DNA of 28,523 nt from the IMG/VR virus record IMGVR_UViG_2061766007_000171; one strand, written 5' to 3'. This stretch comes from an uncultured virus (IMG/VR IMGVR_UViG_2061766007_000171). Taxonomy: Duplodnaviria > Heunggongvirae > Uroviricota > Caudoviricetes. Made by a program: the position numbers and the translations under genes. The notes beneath the pieces are model-generated. The model made no database searches, had not been told where the DNA came from, and worked only from the letters and a program-made list of their open reading frames with translations. This document shows positions 1,294 to 23,235 of this stretch, in pieces; within the stretch, counting starts at the first letter, position 1, and each line of letters opens with the position of its first letter.

Positions 1294-2021
1294 CAGTATT
1301 CCTCCGGGATCTGCGGTGCCAGGAGCATCCTTGTGTAGAACGTGTCGGTATCCACCGTCAGCTCTATCGGGCAGTTGGTATCGAATCCTACTGTCACGAT
1401 GGCATCCTTCGGCACCGCCAGGATCATCGGTATCAGCGCATCGACGCTGAACCCCGCATGTGCCTGTTCGACCTCCTCCTGCAATGCTACGGTGTCACAT
1501 TCCAGCATGTCCTCGAAGGATTCTCTCTCATCCTCCACCTTGGCGATCAGTCCATTGCCTGTAAGTGTCAGCTCAAGCCCGTTGACGCCTTTGAAGTCCT
1601 TGATCTGCTTCTGTTTGAAGAATTTGATCAGATCCGCAGCCTCGATGAGCATCGTCGACATGGGAGTGTATTTAGGTAATGTCTTCACGGCATCGTTAGC
1701 GTCCAGCCCGTCGAGACGGACGGTCTGCTTGCGTTTGTCGCATGTCACCGTCAGCCTTCCGTCGCCGACGACGATGTCGGGCTGTGTTCCCGGAGTCAGC
1801 GCTTCGGGGAAGAACGCATTCTTCACACTGAACCCATCCCCTTTGACATACCCGTCAGGGAATGCACCCTCCGGCAGCTTGCTGTACACCGCCGAGATCC
1901 TGCTGTCGCTGCGCGACCACACCCCCCAGCCGTCGTCCTCAGGGACTATCGAGATACCGTACGCACCCTGCGAGGCTGCCACGGCACACGCATCCAACAA
2001 TGCATCCGCATCGACCTTCAT
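1293..2021 (-). CDS. pcn: DNA polymerase sliding clamp (archaeal-type PCNA), divergent
   Basis: 242 aa; N-terminal DGWGVWSRSDSRISAVYSKLPEGAF and C-terminal FSVDAL..M..A..V.V.F..N.PI.L....LLAPQI fit the PCNA pattern. Confidence 0.8.
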   Translation of the reverse strand: MKVDADALLDACAVAASQGAYGISIVPEDDGWGVWSRSDSRISAVYSKLPEGAFPDGYVKGDGFSVKNAFFPEALTPGTQPDIVVGDGRLTVTCDKRKQTVRLDGLDANDAVKTLPKYTPMSTMLIEAADLIKFFKQKQIKDFKGVNGLELTLTGNGLIAKVEDERESFEDMLECDTVALQEEVEQAHAGFSVDALIPMILAVPKDAIVTVGFDTNCPIELTVDTDTFYTRMLLAPQIPEEY

Positions 2022-2278
2022 GCCTTCACCTTCCTAGCCTTGGCATTCGTCCTCTGAGGCTGCCTGTCGAAATATTTCGACTTGCATTTAGGGCAATACC
2101 TGGGATAATCCTCGGTTATCGACCCTTTCGGCTTCCACTCATGACCGCAGCGTATGCATCTGCAGTCAAAACTCTCCTCCCCGCACTTGCCGCATCTGTT
2201 GACCTCCGTCCTGGCCGGTGTATACACCATACAGTCTGGACACCACACGAGACGCTTGCCCTCTATGTTCCGTGCCAT
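2018..2278 (-). CDS. multi-Zn-finger protein
   Basis: Four CxxC pairs, including CIRCGHEW...P..CPKCKSKY; likely start ATG 2278 downstream of a TTTATA box. Confidence 0.75.
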   Translation of the reverse strand: MARNIEGKRLVWCPDCMVYTPARTEVNRCGKCGEESFDCRCIRCGHEWKPKGSITEDYPRYCPKCKSKYFDRQPQRTNAKARKVKA

Positions 2279-2289
2279 GTATACGGAAT

Positions 2290-2317
2290 ATACATAGAGG
2301 TATAAATAATATATTAT
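2290..2317 (-). promoter_or_regulatory. archaeal TATA promoter with adjacent ATAATATATTAT palindrome
   Basis: Minus strand reads ATAATATATTATTTATAC about 22 nt upstream of ATG 2278. Confidence 0.55.
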
Positions 2318-2318
2318 C

Positions 2319-2633
2319 TCAAGCCTTCTGCTTCTTGCTCTCGATATAGCCCCATCTGGGATCGTCAGCACTCTTCGGGGTGCTCACATGCTTATACCAA
2401 TCCTCGACCAGCTGACGATCTCCAGGATCCTTACCGAATCCGGACCAGCTCATGAGCTTCTTCATCCCCTCGTGGTCCCTCTTCATCTTCTCATCCATGA
2501 ACGGCTCCCATTCGGCGAAATCCTCGATCGACCTTATAGGTTGTGCCTCATCGCCTTTGAGGAACTTGCTGGCCATCTCAGGGTGGATATCGGCGCCGTG
2601 CCAAGCGTTCATGCGTCCGTCGATGTCGGTCAC
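2319..2633 (-). CDS. hypothetical protein
   Basis: 104 aa; overlaps the upstream stop by 4 nt; GGAG RBS. Confidence 0.7.
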   Translation of the reverse strand: MTDIDGRMNAWHGADIHPEMASKFLKGDEAQPIRSIEDFAEWEPFMDEKMKRDHEGMKKLMSWSGFGKDPGDRQLVEDWYKHVSTPKSADDPRWGYIESKKQKA

Positions 2634-3094
2634 TGCAATTCCTCTGCGATCTCATTGCCTTCGACGTCGACCTTCGGCTGCTCGACAGGGGCCTGCACCG
2701 GCCTCCTCTCTCCGACCTTGCCGCCGAAGAACCTGTCGGTCTGCGCGTCGTCACGCTGCCTCTGGAGCACTCTGGCACCGGGCATGGTGATCATCGCCGT
2801 CCTGTCATTGTCATCGGCGAGGGGTTTGAGAGGATCGGCACGGGTGTGCACGATGACCTTGTCGGTGGGGGTGTATGACGCATCGACGACCTTGCCCATA
2901 CCGAGATGGGGTGCGAAGGCATCTTTCGCCGCCTGCGTGCTGGTATTGGTGCGCGAGGTAGCGTCGAACGCGTCAGCCCCGGCTACGAAGAGATCCTTGG
3001 GCTCTGCGGTCGCCGCCTTGTAGCTGTCGATCCAATACTCCGGGGACTTGGCGAACCTGCCTGCGATGAGGGAGTCGATGTCGGTCATGGTCAC
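2630..3094 (-). CDS. hypothetical protein
   Basis: 154 aa (GTG 3094 or ATG 3088); translationally coupled to its neighbours. Confidence 0.7.
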   Translation of the reverse strand: MTMTDIDSLIAGRFAKSPEYWIDSYKAATAEPKDLFVAGADAFDATSRTNTSTQAAKDAFAPHLGMGKVVDASYTPTDKVIVHTRADPLKPLADDNDRTAMITMPGARVLQRQRDDAQTDRFFGGKVGERRPVQAPVEQPKVDVEGNEIAEELQ

Positions 3095-3609
3095 TCGCGC
3101 CTCTGATATTTCATGATAAGGTCGTCGATGTTGGGGTATGCACCGGGGTGTGCCGCCGACTCGAACTCCCCGACGATCTCAGGCGTAGGCTCGATACCCC
3201 ACGCCTCCAGCATGGACTCCCAATCGTACCCCATGGCCTTCTCCCATTTGGCCCTCTCGGCAGGATCCTCGGGGACCTTATCGAAGGTGTACGCGGTCTC
3301 AGCCGCCTTCTCCTCATCCTCCTTGGCCTTGCCGAGCTCCTCTATGGCCTTCGCCTTGTCCTCTCTGGCCGCAGCTTCCTCGGTGCCTTCGCGCACGTCC
3401 TCTTTGCCTTTAGGTGTGTCAGCCTCCTTGACCTCATCCTCAGTGATCTCCTGCTCGGATTCGTCCTTCTTCTCCTCAGGCACGTCCTCAGAGGCCTGGA
3501 GCTTCTCTGCGTACACATCCTTCCCTACGGAAGGATTCGCCTTTTTGAATCCAGGCTGCGCCTGCTGCCTGGCGTCGATCATGTCGTCAATGCTGATGAA
3601 ATCTGTCAT
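3091..3609 (-). CDS. acidic low-complexity hypothetical protein
   Basis: 172 aa, E/K/A-rich; first gene of the leftward block, TATA box just upstream. Confidence 0.75.
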   Translation of the reverse strand: MTDFISIDDMIDARQQAQPGFKKANPSVGKDVYAEKLQASEDVPEEKKDESEQEITEDEVKEADTPKGKEDVREGTEEAAAREDKAKAIEELGKAKEDEEKAAETAYTFDKVPEDPAERAKWEKAMGYDWESMLEAWGIEPTPEIVGEFESAAHPGAYPNIDDLIMKYQRRE

Positions 3610-3627
3610 GGTATGAAGAATGTGCGG

Positions 3628-3646
3628 TGGGTTTATAAAATATAAG
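3628..3646 (-). promoter_or_regulatory. archaeal TATA box (TTTTATAAA), probably leaderless transcript
   Basis: Minus strand TATTTTATAAACC ends about 22 nt before ATG 3609; no SD. Confidence 0.6.
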
Positions 3647-3788
3647 GGTGGAAGAAGGCGGGAGCACCGGGGGTGCCTCCTGCGGGGAACAGGAAGGCAA
3701 GGGAATATTAGGACACGGACCCGCCCGGCTGTATATATGATACGCGGGTGAGTTAATAAATGTTACTTATAACGTGATGGGTGTTAGA

Positions 3789-3815
3789 TAATATATTATA
3801 TAGATGGGATATGCG
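3789..3815 (+). promoter_or_regulatory. promoter/operator copy 1 (TAATATATTATATA-N4-GGATATGCG)
   Basis: The same 27-bp pattern recurs at 4796-4822. Confidence 0.6.
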
Positions 3816-3891
3816 CAGTAGGTAGAATATTATTGACATTGTAGAATTTGACATGGCAGATTATATATAGTGTGATGACGTACTAAGTGAC

Positions 3892-4641
3892 ATGTCAGGG
3901 AATATTAGTGACATAGAGAAGAGATGGAAGGGCGGTATGACCGTCCGCAGGAGGATAGTGACGTCGGTCGAGGGCGACAAGGCCGAGGTCGAGGAGATGT
4001 CCCGCATGGAGCAATACGCCTCGGAACTGTCAGGCGGAGTACTGAAAGCATTGTGCATGATCTGCGAGAACCCCGGGCTGAAGAAGACCGAGTACGCCGA
4101 AGGTTCCAAGACGGTGTTCAACAACATCACCGAGCTGATGAGGATCGGCCTGATAAAGGAGGAGAGGGAGCCGTATGCCAGATATCCCGGTCTCGCCCCC
4201 ACCGACCAGGGCAGGTCATTGTATACGGGCATGTGGTACGCCAACCACCGCGGGAAGCTGGTGGACGAGATGGAGGCCGCAGGGATACTGATACCGTTCG
4301 TCTTCTGGAAGAAAGGAAATTACACACTGAAGATCCTGGACGACAGCGATGACAACTGCGTGGTATACGAGCTGACCGAGCACCTGGACGGCGGAGGGGA
4401 GATGAAGATGACCATCTGGGATGTGTACATGGATGCCAACGGTGTGATATCGTTCCTCCCCGGCCGCCAGGGCATGTCCTACGGTCAGAGGTTCAACGCC
4501 GACTGGGAGGATGATTTCTGCCTGGACGACAAAGGGACAAGGGAATGTCTGAAGATCATCGCCGAGCACAGTCTGAAGATGGACAGGGAGCTCAGGGAAT
4601 CGAGATACAGGGAGATCTTAGAGGATATCGACACGATGTGA
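3892..4641 (+). CDS. winged-helix domain protein with C-terminal unknown domain
   Basis: ICENPGLKKTE...TVFNNITELMRIGLIKEE...PTDQGR resembles an archaeal MarR-like wHTH; true start may be 3937 or later. Confidence 0.7.
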   Translation: MSGNISDIEKRWKGGMTVRRRIVTSVEGDKAEVEEMSRMEQYASELSGGVLKALCMICENPGLKKTEYAEGSKTVFNNITELMRIGLIKEEREPYARYPGLAPTDQGRSLYTGMWYANHRGKLVDEMEAAGILIPFVFWKKGNYTLKILDDSDDNCVVYELTEHLDGGGEMKMTIWDVYMDANGVISFLPGRQGMSYGQRFNADWEDDFCLDDKGTRECLKIIAEHSLKMDRELRESRYREILEDIDTM

Positions 4642-4795
4642 CGCTCACGCCCCCGGGGTTTTTTCGCTTGCTTGTTTACCCGGGGAGTCTCCGGCATGGC
4701 TGTGCCCGGAGAGATCAAATGGCAGAGAGGGTCTTCCTGGTCGTTCTCCCTCCCTGCCCTAAACCTCTTACCTGCCCTCTGACGGCCGGGCAGGG

Positions 4796-5378: not shown

Positions 5379-5521
5379 TGCTCAATAATGAGCAGGAGCG
5401 ATACCAATCAGCAGTACGCACCAGTGTTCACCACCACCCACCACTACCCACGTGGTATGTGGTAAGGCGCGTGACCGTGCATAAAATACAGTTGATGAAG
5501 TATCAGTGCTCAGAAATGAGT
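5379..5521 (+). ncRNA. candidate structured RNA / 5' leader (rod-like hairpin)
   Basis: Nested pairings GATAC/GTATC, ATCAGC/GTTGAT, GCAC/GTGC, TCAC/GTGA, ACCAC/GTGGT, TACC/GGTA; flanked by two similar TGCTCA-N4-TGAG hairpins. Confidence 0.5.
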
Positions 5522-5547
5522 TGAATACGAAAGGAGTATGAAAGAAA

Positions 5548-6099
5548 ATGGCTAAGGAATCAGCTATCGAAATCGCCATCAAAAAAGGCGACGCACGCGC
5601 AATGGCAAAGGACGAAGTATACAACGAGGCCCCTGGCAACAGCATGGAGCCCGAACTGGCTACCCTGAATCTCAGGTACGACGGTTGCTACTACAATGAC
5701 AGGAAGACCCTGGAAAACGGCAAGGTCGACGGAGCGAACCTCAACGCCCGCTTCACCGTGATGAGCGGTAAGACCAAGGGAGCGAAGTTCCACGTGAAGG
5801 CTTACTTCCTCAAATCCAACAACGAGAAGGATGACTACACAACGAAGTTCATCCAGCAGTTGTGCCGTGCTCTTGACGGAAAATCGGACGCGCTGGATGA
5901 CAAGTCCCTTCTGGGAAAGGTCATCAACGCACGTGTCGCATATGACATCGATGTCAAGACCAGGAAGCCGAAAATCCTTGTCCAGAAACTGGATAACAAC
6001 ACCGAAAGGGTCGTCCACCTCTTCAAGGTCTTCGACGTCCGCCAGGCAGTCACCGTCGTCCAGTCCGTCTCTGGAGTCGCGGAGGAGATAGCCAACTGA
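5548..6099 (+). CDS. putative phage ssDNA-binding protein (DUF669-like OB fold)
   Basis: LNARFTVMSGKTKGAKF...IQQLCRALDG...LLGKVINARV resembles DUF669-type SSBs; AGGAG RBS; followed by a terminator. Confidence 0.55.
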   Translation: MAKESAIEIAIKKGDARAMAKDEVYNEAPGNSMEPELATLNLRYDGCYYNDRKTLENGKVDGANLNARFTVMSGKTKGAKFHVKAYFLKSNNEKDDYTTKFIQQLCRALDGKSDALDDKSLLGKVINARVAYDIDVKTRKPKILVQKLDNNTERVVHLFKVFDVRQAVTVVQSVSGVAEEIAN

Positions 6100-6103
6100 A
6101 ACC

Positions 6104-6129
6104 GAGGGGGAAACCCCTCTTCTTTTTTT
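6104..6129 (+). terminator. intrinsic terminator
   Basis: GAGGGG-GAAA-CCCCTC followed by TTCTTTTTTT. Confidence 0.8.
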
Positions 6130-6165
6130 ATTATGCAACCGAGCCCCTGGCAGATAGGAGTGTGA

Positions 6166-6552
6166 ATGAACATGAGTAAAATGGACAGAGAGACATCGTA
6201 CAGAATTGCAAAGAACGCATTGGAACTCATCAGAGATGATGACATCCTTGACACATGGATTGCGCTTTACGCGAACGGCGTGATGGATATGGTCAACCCC
6301 AACATGAAGAAGGAGCACTGCCAAATCGCCTACGCGGACGACGTCACAGACCTCCTGGACGAAATCATGTCCCAGTACGGAGGTGCACTCATCGAAGATG
6401 AGACACTGGACAATGCATTCGACCTAATCTGCTGGAAGTGTAACTCCATCATACAGGACACAATCCTGGAAGGTGAGGAATACACACGCTGGCTGAAGAA
6501 CAACATCGAAGGGCCCAAAATCAAGTTAGACCTTGAGAACGGATGGGCCTGA
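6166..6552 (+). CDS. hypothetical protein
   Basis: 128 aa; AGGAG RBS. Confidence 0.75.
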   Translation: MNMSKMDRETSYRIAKNALELIRDDDILDTWIALYANGVMDMVNPNMKKEHCQIAYADDVTDLLDEIMSQYGGALIEDETLDNAFDLICWKCNSIIQDTILEGEEYTRWLKNNIEGPKIKLDLENGWA

Positions 6553-6565
6553 TTTCACAGTGCTT

Positions 6566-6737
6566 GGGTGAGAGGATGTATTCGCACGATACACCAGCAG
6601 TAGGACTCAGCGACCGTCACAACAAGGTTGTGCTGGTATCCGACGGTCGTATAGCCCTGTCTTGCAGGTTGCCTTGCACTGACGTGCCGCGCTTCGCGCT
6701 TCCGGCAACCATGCTTTTAATTGGGTTCCTCTCACCC
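6566..6737 (+). ncRNA. candidate highly structured ncRNA with pseudoknot (family not recognised; strand assumed from context)
   Basis: Perfect 11-bp closing stem GGGTGAGAGGA/TCCTCTCACCC; internal stems GCGACCGTC/GACGGTCGT, GGTTGCC/GGCAACC, GCAC/GTGC, GCGC/GCGC; CCAGCA/TGCTGG pseudoknot. Confidence 0.7.
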
Positions 6738-6811
6738 TTCACAAACCCTTTCACAACAACCGAGCCCCGCTTAGCAGGGCTCACCACAGACAAGAATCTA
6801 AGGTGATTCAA

Positions 6812-7024
6812 ATGGACGCATTATACACACGCGTAGAGGCTCAGATGAATGAGAGGTTCCCGTTCGACAAGCCCCGTGCACTTGCCCTCACGGACGAAGT
6901 GACAAAGATCCTGGGAACCAACGTGAACGCCAAATGGGACAAGATGGGCGGTGAGCTGTTCTCATCATTCGTCGACGTCGCCATGGAGGACATCGCCAGG
7001 TACAACCCCTGGCTTCTGAGGTGA
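6812..7024 (+). CDS. hypothetical protein
   Basis: AGGTGA RBS before ATG 6812; 70 aa. Confidence 0.7.
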   Translation: MDALYTRVEAQMNERFPFDKPRALALTDEVTKILGTNVNAKWDKMGGELFSSFVDVAMEDIARYNPWLLR

Positions 7025-7028
7025 TACC

Positions 7029-7415
7029 ATGAAGGGAATATCGACTGAGACCTACTTCGACCTTCCTAAGGAAGTCGAGGAACATGTCGGCGATAGAACG
7101 GCTAAAGCTTACCTGAACTACAACAATGTCCGCGGGACATGCCCCTGGATGTGCGCATACGTCATCGTACCCCTCAAGGTCAGAGACGTCGAATGCCACG
7201 GCGGTGTCACATACGGCGAGGAAGATGTCACTGAATACAAGAACGAGATCCCTGGACACAGAGACGTCAAGATACCCAGAGGATATCACGTCATCGGATG
7301 GGATTTCGTTCATTACGATGATGACGAACTTCCCGTCGAGAAGGCAGTCGAATCCGTGAGAAGGACTCTTCAATGGATGATCGCACACAAGATCATCACC
7401 GCGGGGGAAGCATAA
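7029..7415 (+). CDS. conserved phage hypothetical protein (CHGG.TY...GWDF.H motif)
   Basis: CAYV...CHGGVTY...IGWDFVHYDD is a recurring phage/MGE motif; GAGGTGA RBS. Confidence 0.75.
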   Translation: MKGISTETYFDLPKEVEEHVGDRTAKAYLNYNNVRGTCPWMCAYVIVPLKVRDVECHGGVTYGEEDVTEYKNEIPGHRDVKIPRGYHVIGWDFVHYDDDELPVEKAVESVRRTLQWMIAHKIITAGEA

Positions 7416-7466
7416 CAACCGCCCCCCTTCGCTCAGCGACATGATCGGTTCACTGTGAACTTATTT

Positions 7467-7484
7467 TGAAATTCATTTTATGAA
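7467..7484 (+). repeat. boundary motif copy 2 (TGAAATTCATTTTATGAA)
   Basis: Directly upstream of the GAGGTG RBS of the gene at 7506. Confidence 0.7.
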
Positions 7485-7505
7485 ACATTTGTGAGGTGTT
7501 ATAGA

Positions 7506-7886
7506 ATGCCAGAAAACAAGGACAGAATATCTGTAAAAGAACTGAATGCAACCGCCAGGATCCTCATGGCCGCCGCCGAGGATATGGGTCACCCTGACCC
7601 GCACGCCTTCGCAGAGAAGTACGCGAACATGATCCCGCTCTTCTTCGGCTTCGAGCCCGTCAGAAGGATGGCCGCCGGTGACTTCTGTGTCATCGCGCTC
7701 GCTGTCAAGATGTGCATGATCATCGAAGATCCCGGCGTGAAGGAAGAGATGATCGAGCAATATGAGGATGCCCGTGCTAAGGCATATGCCCACGCAGCAT
7801 CCATAGGGATGACGCACGAGGACATAAAGCGCATGTCTGAGGACGACAGCGACGATGAGATAGACTTCGACGAGGAGGATGAATGA
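7506..7886 (+). CDS. hypothetical protein with acidic tail
   Basis: GAGGTG RBS then ATG 7506; C-terminus EDDSDDEIDFDEEDE. Confidence 0.75.
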   Translation: MPENKDRISVKELNATARILMAAAEDMGHPDPHAFAEKYANMIPLFFGFEPVRRMAAGDFCVIALAVKMCMIIEDPGVKEEMIEQYEDARAKAYAHAASIGMTHEDIKRMSEDDSDDEIDFDEEDE

Positions 7887-8334
7887 GATGAGACACCATG
7901 GTAATTGGATAATACACGACGGCAAAGTGAGTGTCTGGTGCGAGACATGCGGATACTCTATCGAACACGCTTGTACAGACAAGCAGGCAGAAATGATCGA
8001 GAACACACCGATCCAGGCAGTCTTCCCCGAACTCACTCCTGATGTGAACGAGATGTTCATCACCGGCCAATGCGGTCTGTGCTCATCACTGGGATACACG
8101 AAGATAACACCGAAGGCTGAGGAGAAGATCGTCAACGAGACCAAGGAGATCCTGGAGATATGCCATCTTCCTTTCACCGTCACCTCAGCAGAGGACTGCT
8201 ATCAGCTGAGCATCGACCTAAAGGACAACATAGATGACTGTGACTACAGGGATGCCTACGTGCTCATCAGGGAGAACATGAAGCGCGTCATCGATGACAT
8301 CTGGGCAGGCAAATACGGGGAGGTGGAAGCATGA
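7879..8334 (+). CDS. Zn-binding phage hypothetical protein
   Basis: CETC...IQAVFPELTPDVNEMFITGQCGLC motif; GGAGG RBS. Confidence 0.75.
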   Translation: MNEMRHHGNWIIHDGKVSVWCETCGYSIEHACTDKQAEMIENTPIQAVFPELTPDVNEMFITGQCGLCSSLGYTKITPKAEEKIVNETKEILEICHLPFTVTSAEDCYQLSIDLKDNIDDCDYRDAYVLIRENMKRVIDDIWAGKYGEVEA

Positions 8335-22194: not shown

Positions 22195-23235
22195 ATGCTG
22201 ATCGACAAAGATAAGACCGGTAAACAGATAAAGAAACTCGAGAGACAGACTGGAATCGCTGCGATATTCCATAATAACAATTTCAAGGAAATGGACGTCA
22301 ATAGCATCTATGATGCTTATGTCCAAGAATTCAAAGAGAAGATCGTCGAAGGAGCGATCTATTCTACATTGAAAGACATGTATGACAAAGGATACCTTAC
22401 AAGAGAAAGACGCACGGTCAANNNNNNNNNNGATAACAATTTCAAGGAAATGGACGTCAATGGCATCTATGATGCTTATGTCCAAGAATTCAAAGAGAAA
22501 ATCGTCGAAGGAGCGATCTATTCTACATTAAAAGACATGTATGACAAAGGATACCTTACAAGAGAAAGACGCACGGTCAAAAGATACATCAATGGACATC
22601 CTAAAGATGTCAGTGTGATCTTCTACAGACCTACAAGACAGCTTCAAGAACTTCATAATGAATCAAGGAAACTGATCGACAAAGTATCAAATGAGATCGA
22701 TGGTGTGAAACCAGAACTCGACCTGGTACCAGAAGATCAGAAATCCAGACCGGCATTCAATACACCTTCTATGTTATCTGAGAAGGAAGCCGAGATCCAA
22801 AAGATGCAGGATAAGATCGACAAGGTACAGGAGATCTGTAAACCTGTAGAAAAAGAGAAAGAGACAAAGAAGAAGATAGAGGACATGCTGAACACGATGT
22901 CGACCGGCGAAGCTCTTGTCAAACTCTATCAGGGATACAGGATCGTGTCAGCCGTGTCAGGGAATGTCTACGTGATCATGGACAAGAAAGGTATCACCTG
23001 CTCGCTGCACCCCGGTGAGATAATCACGACATTCCCTGCCAATGAGATGGAAGGAGTATGGAGACTCCTGGAAGACCCCAAGCCGTGTCCGTATTGCGGT
23101 TCGAGTGTCAAGCTCATTCAGCCTTCTGACAAGGTCGTCTCATATTACATGTGTGAGAATGTATCCTGTCGTGCAAAAGGCCCGCTTGGTACAACGCCGG
23201 AGGAAGCTCTTCGCAAGCATAATACCAGAGCATGA
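22195..23235 (+). CDS. multidomain protein with C-terminal Lar-like Zn finger (internal gap/duplication)
   Basis: KPCPYCG...CENVSCRAKGP...EEALRKHNTR; AGGAG RBS; duplicate across N 22422-22431. Confidence 0.7.
   Translation: MLIDKDKTGKQIKKLERQTGIAAIFHNNNFKEMDVNSIYDAYVQEFKEKIVEGAIYSTLKDMYDKGYLTRERRTVXXXXDNNFKEMDVNGIYDAYVQEFKEKIVEGAIYSTLKDMYDKGYLTRERRTVKRYINGHPKDVSVIFYRPTRQLQELHNESRKLIDKVSNEIDGVKPELDLVPEDQKSRPAFNTPSMLSEKEAEIQKMQDKIDKVQEICKPVEKEKETKKKIEDMLNTMSTGEALVKLYQGYRIVSAVSGNVYVIMDKKGITCSLHPGEIITTFPANEMEGVWRLLEDPKPCPYCGSSVKLIQPSDKVVSYYMCENVSCRAKGPLGTTPEEALRKHNTRA

Follow-up and report, generated by a model that had tools for sequence, protein, structure and literature searches.

A 172-nt element on the + strand of a virus-derived sequence folds into a pseudoknotted RNA. 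Which RNA is it, and what might it do where it lies? The window is the whole stretch of DNA that was analysed (28,523 nt), and it comes from a bovine gut metagenome. The initial annotation of this DNA called the element unrecognised and compared it loosely with the RNAs of retrons and of other reverse transcriptase (RT) systems.

The element was assigned with covariance models. A cmscan search of the whole window against Rfam 15 matched RT-5 (RF03026) at 6589-6692 (+) with 53.2 bits, a gathering score of 45.7 and an E value of 7.6e-8. The match spans the full model (positions 1-104), and it was the sole match above the gathering score. A cmscan of 6400-6900 at E ≤ 1 contained RT-5 and a chance-level snoRNA (E 0.43) only, in line with the earlier statement that this is no known self-cleaving ribozyme. 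A covariance model built from 67 bacterial copies only, with the window excluded (R1), finds 6564-6701 with 33.2 bits (E about 1e-7). R1 misplaces the 3' end of the window copy because of its 44-nt junction insertion, and the MAFFT alignment A1, described below, was therefore taken for pair counts. By these matches, 6566-6737 (+) is very probably a complete but divergent member of the RT-5 family.

The claim of an unrecognised RNA thus does not stand. The Rfam check that the annotation had itself named was run, and the strong RT-5 match, above the curated threshold, removes the novelty of the RNA. The RNA family is already catalogued; the solitary, conserved, phage-borne state is new. The prediction of a structured noncoding RNA with a pseudoknot was sound, as the Rfam match and the family alignment agree. 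The guess at an RT-associated RNA was also correct, since RT-5 copies adjoin RT genes in bacteria. Its retron half was not borne out. A retron msr-msd RNA was rejected because the window contains no RT and the cmscan of 6400-6900 matched no retron model. The terminal inverted repeat is the P0 helix of the family. An integration-site remnant was rejected as well, since this divergent copy is full-length and sits inside the gene array. Weinberg et al. 2017 (PMC5737381) found the RT-1 to RT-19 motifs near RT genes, and their motif descriptions assign no function.

Table 1. Features of the RNA and of its surroundings in the window.
Feature	Positions	Strand	Remarks
Upstream 128-aa ORFan	6166..6552	+	Unrelated to the bacterial accessory protein (hhalign probability 0.2%); no Pfam or PHROG family
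Probable full-length RT-5-family RNA, P0-P1-pseudoknot-P2-P3 region-UUYAA-P0'	6566..6737	+	RF03026, R1 and column-by-column alignment with 67 copies
P0 outer helix, 5' strand, purine-rich	6566..6576	+	Pairs with 6727-6737, 11/11
P1 hairpin	6577..6593	+	6578-6582/6588-6592, 5/5 pairs
Pseudoknot 5' strand, ACCAGC	6593..6598	+	Bacterial consensus GCCUGC; 6/6 pairs with 6632-6637
P2 long arm with invariant GGA...AGC and GU-A motifs	6602..6658	+	Rfam model positions 13-72; apical loop carries the pseudoknot 3' strand
Pseudoknot 3' strand, GCUGGU, in P2 loop	6632..6637	+	Bacterial consensus GCAGGC
Three-way junction GGUUGCC/GGCAACC with two hairpins	6667..6710	+	MFE fold; aligns as an insertion, in place of bacterial P3
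UUUAAU	6716..6721	+	Corresponds in the alignment to UUCAAA, a single-stranded and near-invariant family motif; Clostridia copies have a UUUAA-type form
P0 outer helix, 3' strand, pyrimidine-rich	6727..6737	+	Pairs with 6566-6576, 11/11
Stable hairpin 3' of the RNA, without a U-tract on the + strand	6762..6782	+	Segment -18.5 kcal/mol, z -3.0
Downstream small ORFs, 73 aa and 128 aa, at the bacterial RT position	6803..7415	+	Neither is an RT

Sequence inspection and pair counts recovered every element that the annotation had drawn in this RNA, position for position (Table 1). The 172-nt fold has a minimum free energy (MFE) of -71.5 kcal/mol, against -54.2 ± 4.0 kcal/mol for 200 dinucleotide shuffles (z -4.3), and none of the shuffles was as stable. 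The perfect 11-bp terminal helix is P0, a family-wide feature that covaries. The first hairpin (TGTAT/ATACA) is P1, which is also family-wide. Its limits are 6577/8-6582 with 6588-6592/3, and two of its pairs differ from the bacterial reference copy L006 by compensated changes. The pseudoknot was confirmed, and the pair A6599-T6631 proposed by the annotation would be its seventh. It contains two compensated pairs relative to the bacterial copies, G-C to A-U and U-A to A-U. The Rfam alignment places CCUGC/GCAGG of the family over CCAGC/GCUGG of the window, so the annotated pseudoknot is that of the family with a compensated change.

The long arm (P2) forms 16 of 18 pairs and retains every family-invariant letter. 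It is a covarying family feature. Its sections are 6602-6607/6653-6658 (5 of 6 pairs, with one A.C), 6610-6617/6643-6650 (8 of 8 pairs) and the apical stem 6626-6629/6638-6641 (3 of 4 pairs). An alternative pairing of the loop, CACAAC/GTTGTG, had been proposed. Single-sequence MFE folding chooses it; the family consensus backs the pseudoknotted form instead. The three-way junction, closed by 6667-6673/6704-6710 and bearing two GC hairpins, is the MFE fold as described. The internal loop at 6618-6625 (CACAACAA, with an ACA-ACA repeat) lies between a helix and the pseudoknot, and is proposed, speculatively, as a template of the telomerase or DRT10 type. The hairpin at 6762-6782 may be a 3' end or processing site of the RNA.

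The family RNA is longer than its 104-nt Rfam model. This was seen in two MAFFT alignments, one of 67 full bacterial copies plus the window (A1) and the same one without the window (A2). The order from 5' to 3' is the P0 strand, P1, the pseudoknot 5' strand, P2 with the pseudoknot 3' strand in its loop, P3, UUCAAA and P0'. The outer helix, P1 and the UUYAA motif fall outside the Rfam model. P0 joins a purine-rich strand to a pyrimidine-rich one that lies about 120 nt further 3'. The loops of P1 and P3 vary in length, for which reason RNAalifold did not recover these two hairpins from A2, and their pairs were set by hand.

Pairing in A1 was compared with shuffled and slid controls. It contained 88.6% paired cells, against 76.4 ± 0.4% in 500 shuffles. 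Changes on both sides were found in 36 of 47 pairs, against 27.4 ± 1.8 in the shuffles. Sliding the partners by 1-3 columns gave 44-51% paired cells; the controls do not take out the relatedness of the copies, but the slid ones preserve it. P0 had both-side changes in 10 of its 11 pairs across the family, with 91.7% of cells paired (A1). The search pattern demanded the pseudoknot, which accounts for its invariance in the 67 copies. Three copies free of this bias were retrieved with RF03026 from 151 genomes, and they include one compensated CCUGU/ACAGG pseudoknot (L112) and one with a U.G pair. By these alignments, the outer helix, P1, the pseudoknot and the long arm are family-wide covarying features.

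The window copy is the most divergent RT-5 copy seen. Over shared columns, no bacterial copy is more than 50% identical to it (median, 45%), whereas bacterial copies compared with one another have a median of 64%. It shares with RF03026 the long arm (GGA/AGC/GU-A) and the pseudoknot, CC(U/A)GC with GC(A/U)GG in the loop. It shares with the family, in our own alignment, the outer helix, P1 and UUYAA. Every family helix is retained, and P3 alone is replaced, by the three-way junction. The setting also differs. The window copy sits in phage-like DNA and has no adjoining RT, whereas RT adjacency was the criterion by which the RT motifs were found. One bacterial copy, L079, encodes two hairpins at the P3 position. 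This locus (L079/L091) is from a Clostridia MAG, and its two-hairpin P3 is an independent expansion at the site of the window's three-way junction.

Bacterial copies were retrieved from 185,579 species genomes with a strict consensus pattern. The search returned 83 stretches, and 68 of these were judged true copies. The other 15 were dropped by eye as chance matches in GC-rich coding DNA, and none had an RT downstream (L009, L018, L019, L032, L033, L038, L042, L049, L054, L068, L069, L074, L078, L085 and L088). The true copies are mostly from rumen and gut Bacteroidales and Clostridia. The family is sparse by the Rfam model: within one Clostridia order it was found in 4 of 151 genomes, and the sample of the phylum yielded 1 of 151, which was the centre genome itself.

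RT-5 in bacteria is a pseudoknotted RNA of about 135 nt between a COG2852-like accessory gene and a gene for a UG26-class RT. The bacterial RNAs are intergenic. A typical locus contains an ORF of 150-250 aa that ends about 30 nt before the motif, followed by an ORF of 400-450 aa on the same strand. The downstream protein was an RT in 65 of the 68 true loci by phmmer. One contig ends at the locus (L062) and was not assessable, and in another locus (L086) the RT was found when more of the genome was included (L090). An RT is thus present in 66 of 67 assessable loci, starting about 10-250 nt from the RNA. PADLOC assigned RT_UG26 in all six loci tested (E 1e-142 to 1e-161). The upstream protein gave a weak match to the RT-associated COG2852 model in three of the six tested. 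From the end of the P0 3' strand and its trailing U-run to the RT start codon there are 10-25 nt, and in bacteria the closing helix may thus reach into the translation-initiation region of the RT.

Two bacterial loci deviate from this pattern. L014, a 6617-nt Bacteroidales contig, is the sole RT-less copy among the 67. It retains an intact-looking RNA at 3304-3350 (-) and the accessory ORF at 3384-3956 (-). The RT position is occupied by the potassium transport genes TrkA (1833-3167, -) and TrkH (340-1878, -). L014 keeps its RNA without an RT, so RT-less copies can come from plain decay. L031, an isolate labelled Bacteroidaceae, contains an RT ORF (6121-6882) of only 253-265 aa, which is possibly truncated.

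The window is a one-strand array of small phage-type ORFans with few family matches. The matches in Pfam and PHROG were Lar-like restriction alleviation, HNH endonuclease, PcfJ-like, Ren/MarR-like and GP88. Relatives of window proteins occur in Bacillota phages, and no structural phage genes were found in the 28.5 kb. The ORFan array, the domain matches and the phage relatives are indirect marks of phage-like DNA. The 346-aa product of the ORF at 22195-23235 (+) has a Lar-like restriction-alleviation domain at its C terminus (PHROG 599, E 7e-8), which points to anti-restriction functions in at least some of the window.

The RNA lies between an upstream ORF that stops at 6552 and a next ORF that starts at 6803/6812. 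The annotation had called this a GC-rich gap. The gap is real; the GC enrichment is weak (0.545-0.555, against 0.47-0.54 nearby). The downstream 128-aa protein resembles viral hypothetical-protein clusters in a protein atlas, and the look-up there returned no function for the flanking proteins. No RT is present in the window, as had been noted before; none of its 47 ORFs matches RVT_1 (Pfam).

Two other hairpins lie upstream. The first, at 6104-6122 (+), resembles an intrinsic terminator, with a T-run, and lies between the ORFs at 5548-6099 and 6166-6552. The transcription unit with the RNA may therefore begin between 6123 and 6165. The second, at 4719-4758 (+), lies 3' of the ORF at 3892-4641 and has a purine and a pyrimidine strand (GGCAGAGAGGG.../...CCCUCCCUGCC). 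The outer-helix part of the RT-5 model gives it 14.4 bits (E 0.03), and it is probably a terminator or an unrelated hairpin.

The element was also looked for in other samples. Contigs from four other studies match 6000-7500 at 90-95% identity. Three of the four bridge the element (X5, 6000-7188; X7, 6000-6780; X11, 6279-6761). The lineage is present in samples dated 2011-2025 from several studies. One variant, X9, has a piece at 6517-6667 with two differences, both before 6543, which leaves 0 in 125 nt (6543-6667) over the 5' part of the RNA. The flanking pieces of X9 differ at 16 places in 247 nt and at 8 in 245 nt (3-6%). Some other variants differ inside the element. These contigs show the element to be kept up in the phage lineage in rumen samples.

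A solitary RNA of this kind might act on an RT supplied by the host. We favour this reading tentatively and hold it at clearly less than even confidence. By analogy, the phage would encode a mimic of the host UG26 RNA, and this mimic would act in trans to titrate or reprogram the host RT. The phage would transcribe the RNA along with accessory or early genes. The retained core would comprise the outer helix, P1, the pseudoknot, the GGA/AGC/GUA arm and the UUYAA motif. Through this core the phage RNA would bind the host UG26 RT in trans and compete with the host RT-5 RNA. The host RT would be sequestered, or made to copy a different RNA, and the normal product of the system would not be made.

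The features of the sequence that point to a mimic are family membership, intact helices at ≤50% identity, the solitary phage-like setting and maintenance in the lineage. The candidate hosts fit as well, in that UG26 and RT-5 carriers occur in the same habitat, as Clostridia and Bacteroidales of goat, sheep, yak and buffalo rumen. Several points weigh against it. The solitary viral RT-5 was found in one phage lineage only, across IMG/VR, GenBank phages, plasmids and JGI metagenomes, and does not recur as Racrs do. The prediction of a defence role for UG26 is graded inconclusive in the assessment of Mestre et al. 2022 (PMC9226505). Decay can also produce an RT-less copy, as L014 shows. The RNA also appears fully competent, with UUYAA kept, which would be as compatible with use as with blockade.

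The RNA could instead be a relic with no function, gained by recombination as a fragment of a host UG26 cassette and yet to erode. The RNA of L014 outlasted its RT in just this way, and GenBank phages, IMG/VR and JGI metagenomes contained no second phage example. Against a relic, coding traces of the RT and the accessory gene are absent beside the RNA. A tblastn search of the window with five UG26 RTs and six accessory proteins gave a best E of 0.01, in a 51-aa stretch of the HNH endonuclease gene. Six-frame profile searches of the window gave best E values of 0.54 (RT) and 0.38 (accessory). The accessory profile reached hhalign probabilities of only 0.2-0.3% against both flanking ORFs. The RNA occupies a clean gap of 250 nt within a compact run of genes, and its helices are all intact, including the perfect closing helix. 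Erosion also fits poorly with the X9 variant (no differences in 125 nt, against 3-6% in its flanks) and with a lineage that recurs over 2011-2025 in several studies. We regard a relic as unlikely.

Another purpose than blocking a defence was also considered. The phage may recruit the host UG26 RT, or use the RNA in an RT-independent role, to its own benefit. Examples are cDNA synthesis, exclusion of competing phages and regulation of downstream genes. This complete RNA, with a 3' domain enlarged by the three-way junction, lies in the 5' region of a gene block of the same orientation. The same sequence data fit the decoy reading equally, and we think a use of this sort improbable.

The RNA might also serve an RT of the same phage that is encoded beyond the 28.5-kb window, in a split UG26-like system used for the phage's own purposes. 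The RNA seems complete, with all family motifs retained, and the window need not be the entire phage genome. UG-class RTs with ncRNAs are known from phages, UG27 being one (PMC9226505). Against this, bacterial RTs keep close to their RNA (about 10-250 nt in 66 of 67 assessable loci), and no RT of any kind was found within 6.5 kb upstream or 21.8 kb downstream of the window RNA.

Other copies of the RNA and of its RT were also sought. The strict RT-5 pattern had no matches in IMG/VR. Loose patterns retrieved five loci there, none of which was RT-5 by cmscan or R1. Relatives of the UG26 RT in IMG/VR numbered at least 472; the best 80 were all ≤29% identical, the top ones were UG27, and none was UG26-type. 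No RT-5-like RNA was found beside these best 80 RT loci, where the best R1 score was 13.9 bits (E 0.74). A pattern for the window-type pseudoknot retrieved 20 loci from JGI metagenomes, none matching R1 at E ≤ 1. Positions 5500-8000 had no blastn match among GenBank phages, and the RNA element had none among PLSDB plasmids. IMG/VR returned no relatives for either flanking protein other than one stretch, presumably the window's own record. By the IMG/VR searches, UG26 and RT-5 are not usual phage cargo. A split system is distinctly unlikely.

The 87-aa ORF at 6543-6806 does exist as a reading frame, but it is very improbable that it is a real gene with an incidental RNA fold. It matches no family in Pfam or PHROG. 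Its sequence scores as an RNA family that is intergenic in bacteria, and coding constraint leaves the compensated pair changes unexplained.

The host-directed mimic would matter beyond this locus. It would be the first RNA-based countermeasure against an RT system, namely a stand-alone mimic of the UG26 RNA with a re-coded but intact pseudoknot and a 3' domain of its own, hijacking the host RT. We put this larger claim forward as doubtful, by analogy with known systems. A literature search on RF03026 and on phage-encoded ncRNA/RT decoys returned, by titles and the beginnings of abstracts, no viral RNA that targets the RNA dependence of UG RTs. The mimic, if real, would also argue indirectly for an anti-phage role of the uncharacterised UG26/RT-5 cassette. 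With a single RNA and a single RT cassette, two questions could be put to a cheap test: does UG26 serve as a defence, and do phages use RNA mimics to disarm RT systems? If the RNA is a relic or has a distant partner RT, the finding shrinks to a divergent member of a known Rfam family.

Four known systems can be compared with this locus. The first is the UG26 cassette itself. Mestre et al. 2022 (PMC9226505) place UG26 among the class 2 UG/Abi RTs, together with an associated COG2852 protein, and their description of it includes no ncRNA. By the present analysis, the window RNA is of the kind found in bacterial UG26 cassettes. The UG26-class RT and the COG2852-like accessory gene are both missing from the window.

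The second comparison is with DRT2, DRT9 and DRT10, which are class 2 UG RTs that require an ncRNA as scaffold and template (PMC12632851, PMC9226505). Their ncRNAs are structured, are encoded beside the RT and are needed for repetitive cDNA synthesis (PMC12632851). A scaffold or template role of this type is the likely working model, by analogy, for RT-5 with UG26. RT-5 has no sequence or Rfam relationship to these ncRNAs. They act in cis-encoded systems, whereas the window RNA is a solitary phage gene.

The third is the UG27 RT of gut phages, a phage-borne relative of UG26 with a structured RNA of its own (PMC9226505). UG27 phages carry the RT and the window does not. The RT-5 model finds nothing beside the best 80 IMG/VR RT loci.

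The fourth, and the closest analogy, is the Racrs, solitary CRISPR-repeat RNAs by which phages disarm Cas proteins (PMC10651486). Like a Racr, the window RNA is a viral, solitary copy of a host-system RNA, and the proteins of that system are absent. Racrs differ in being CRISPR repeats, in occurring in many viruses and in having been tested experimentally; the window RNA is known from one lineage and from sequence. The Racr precedent provides the analogy for how the window RNA might work.
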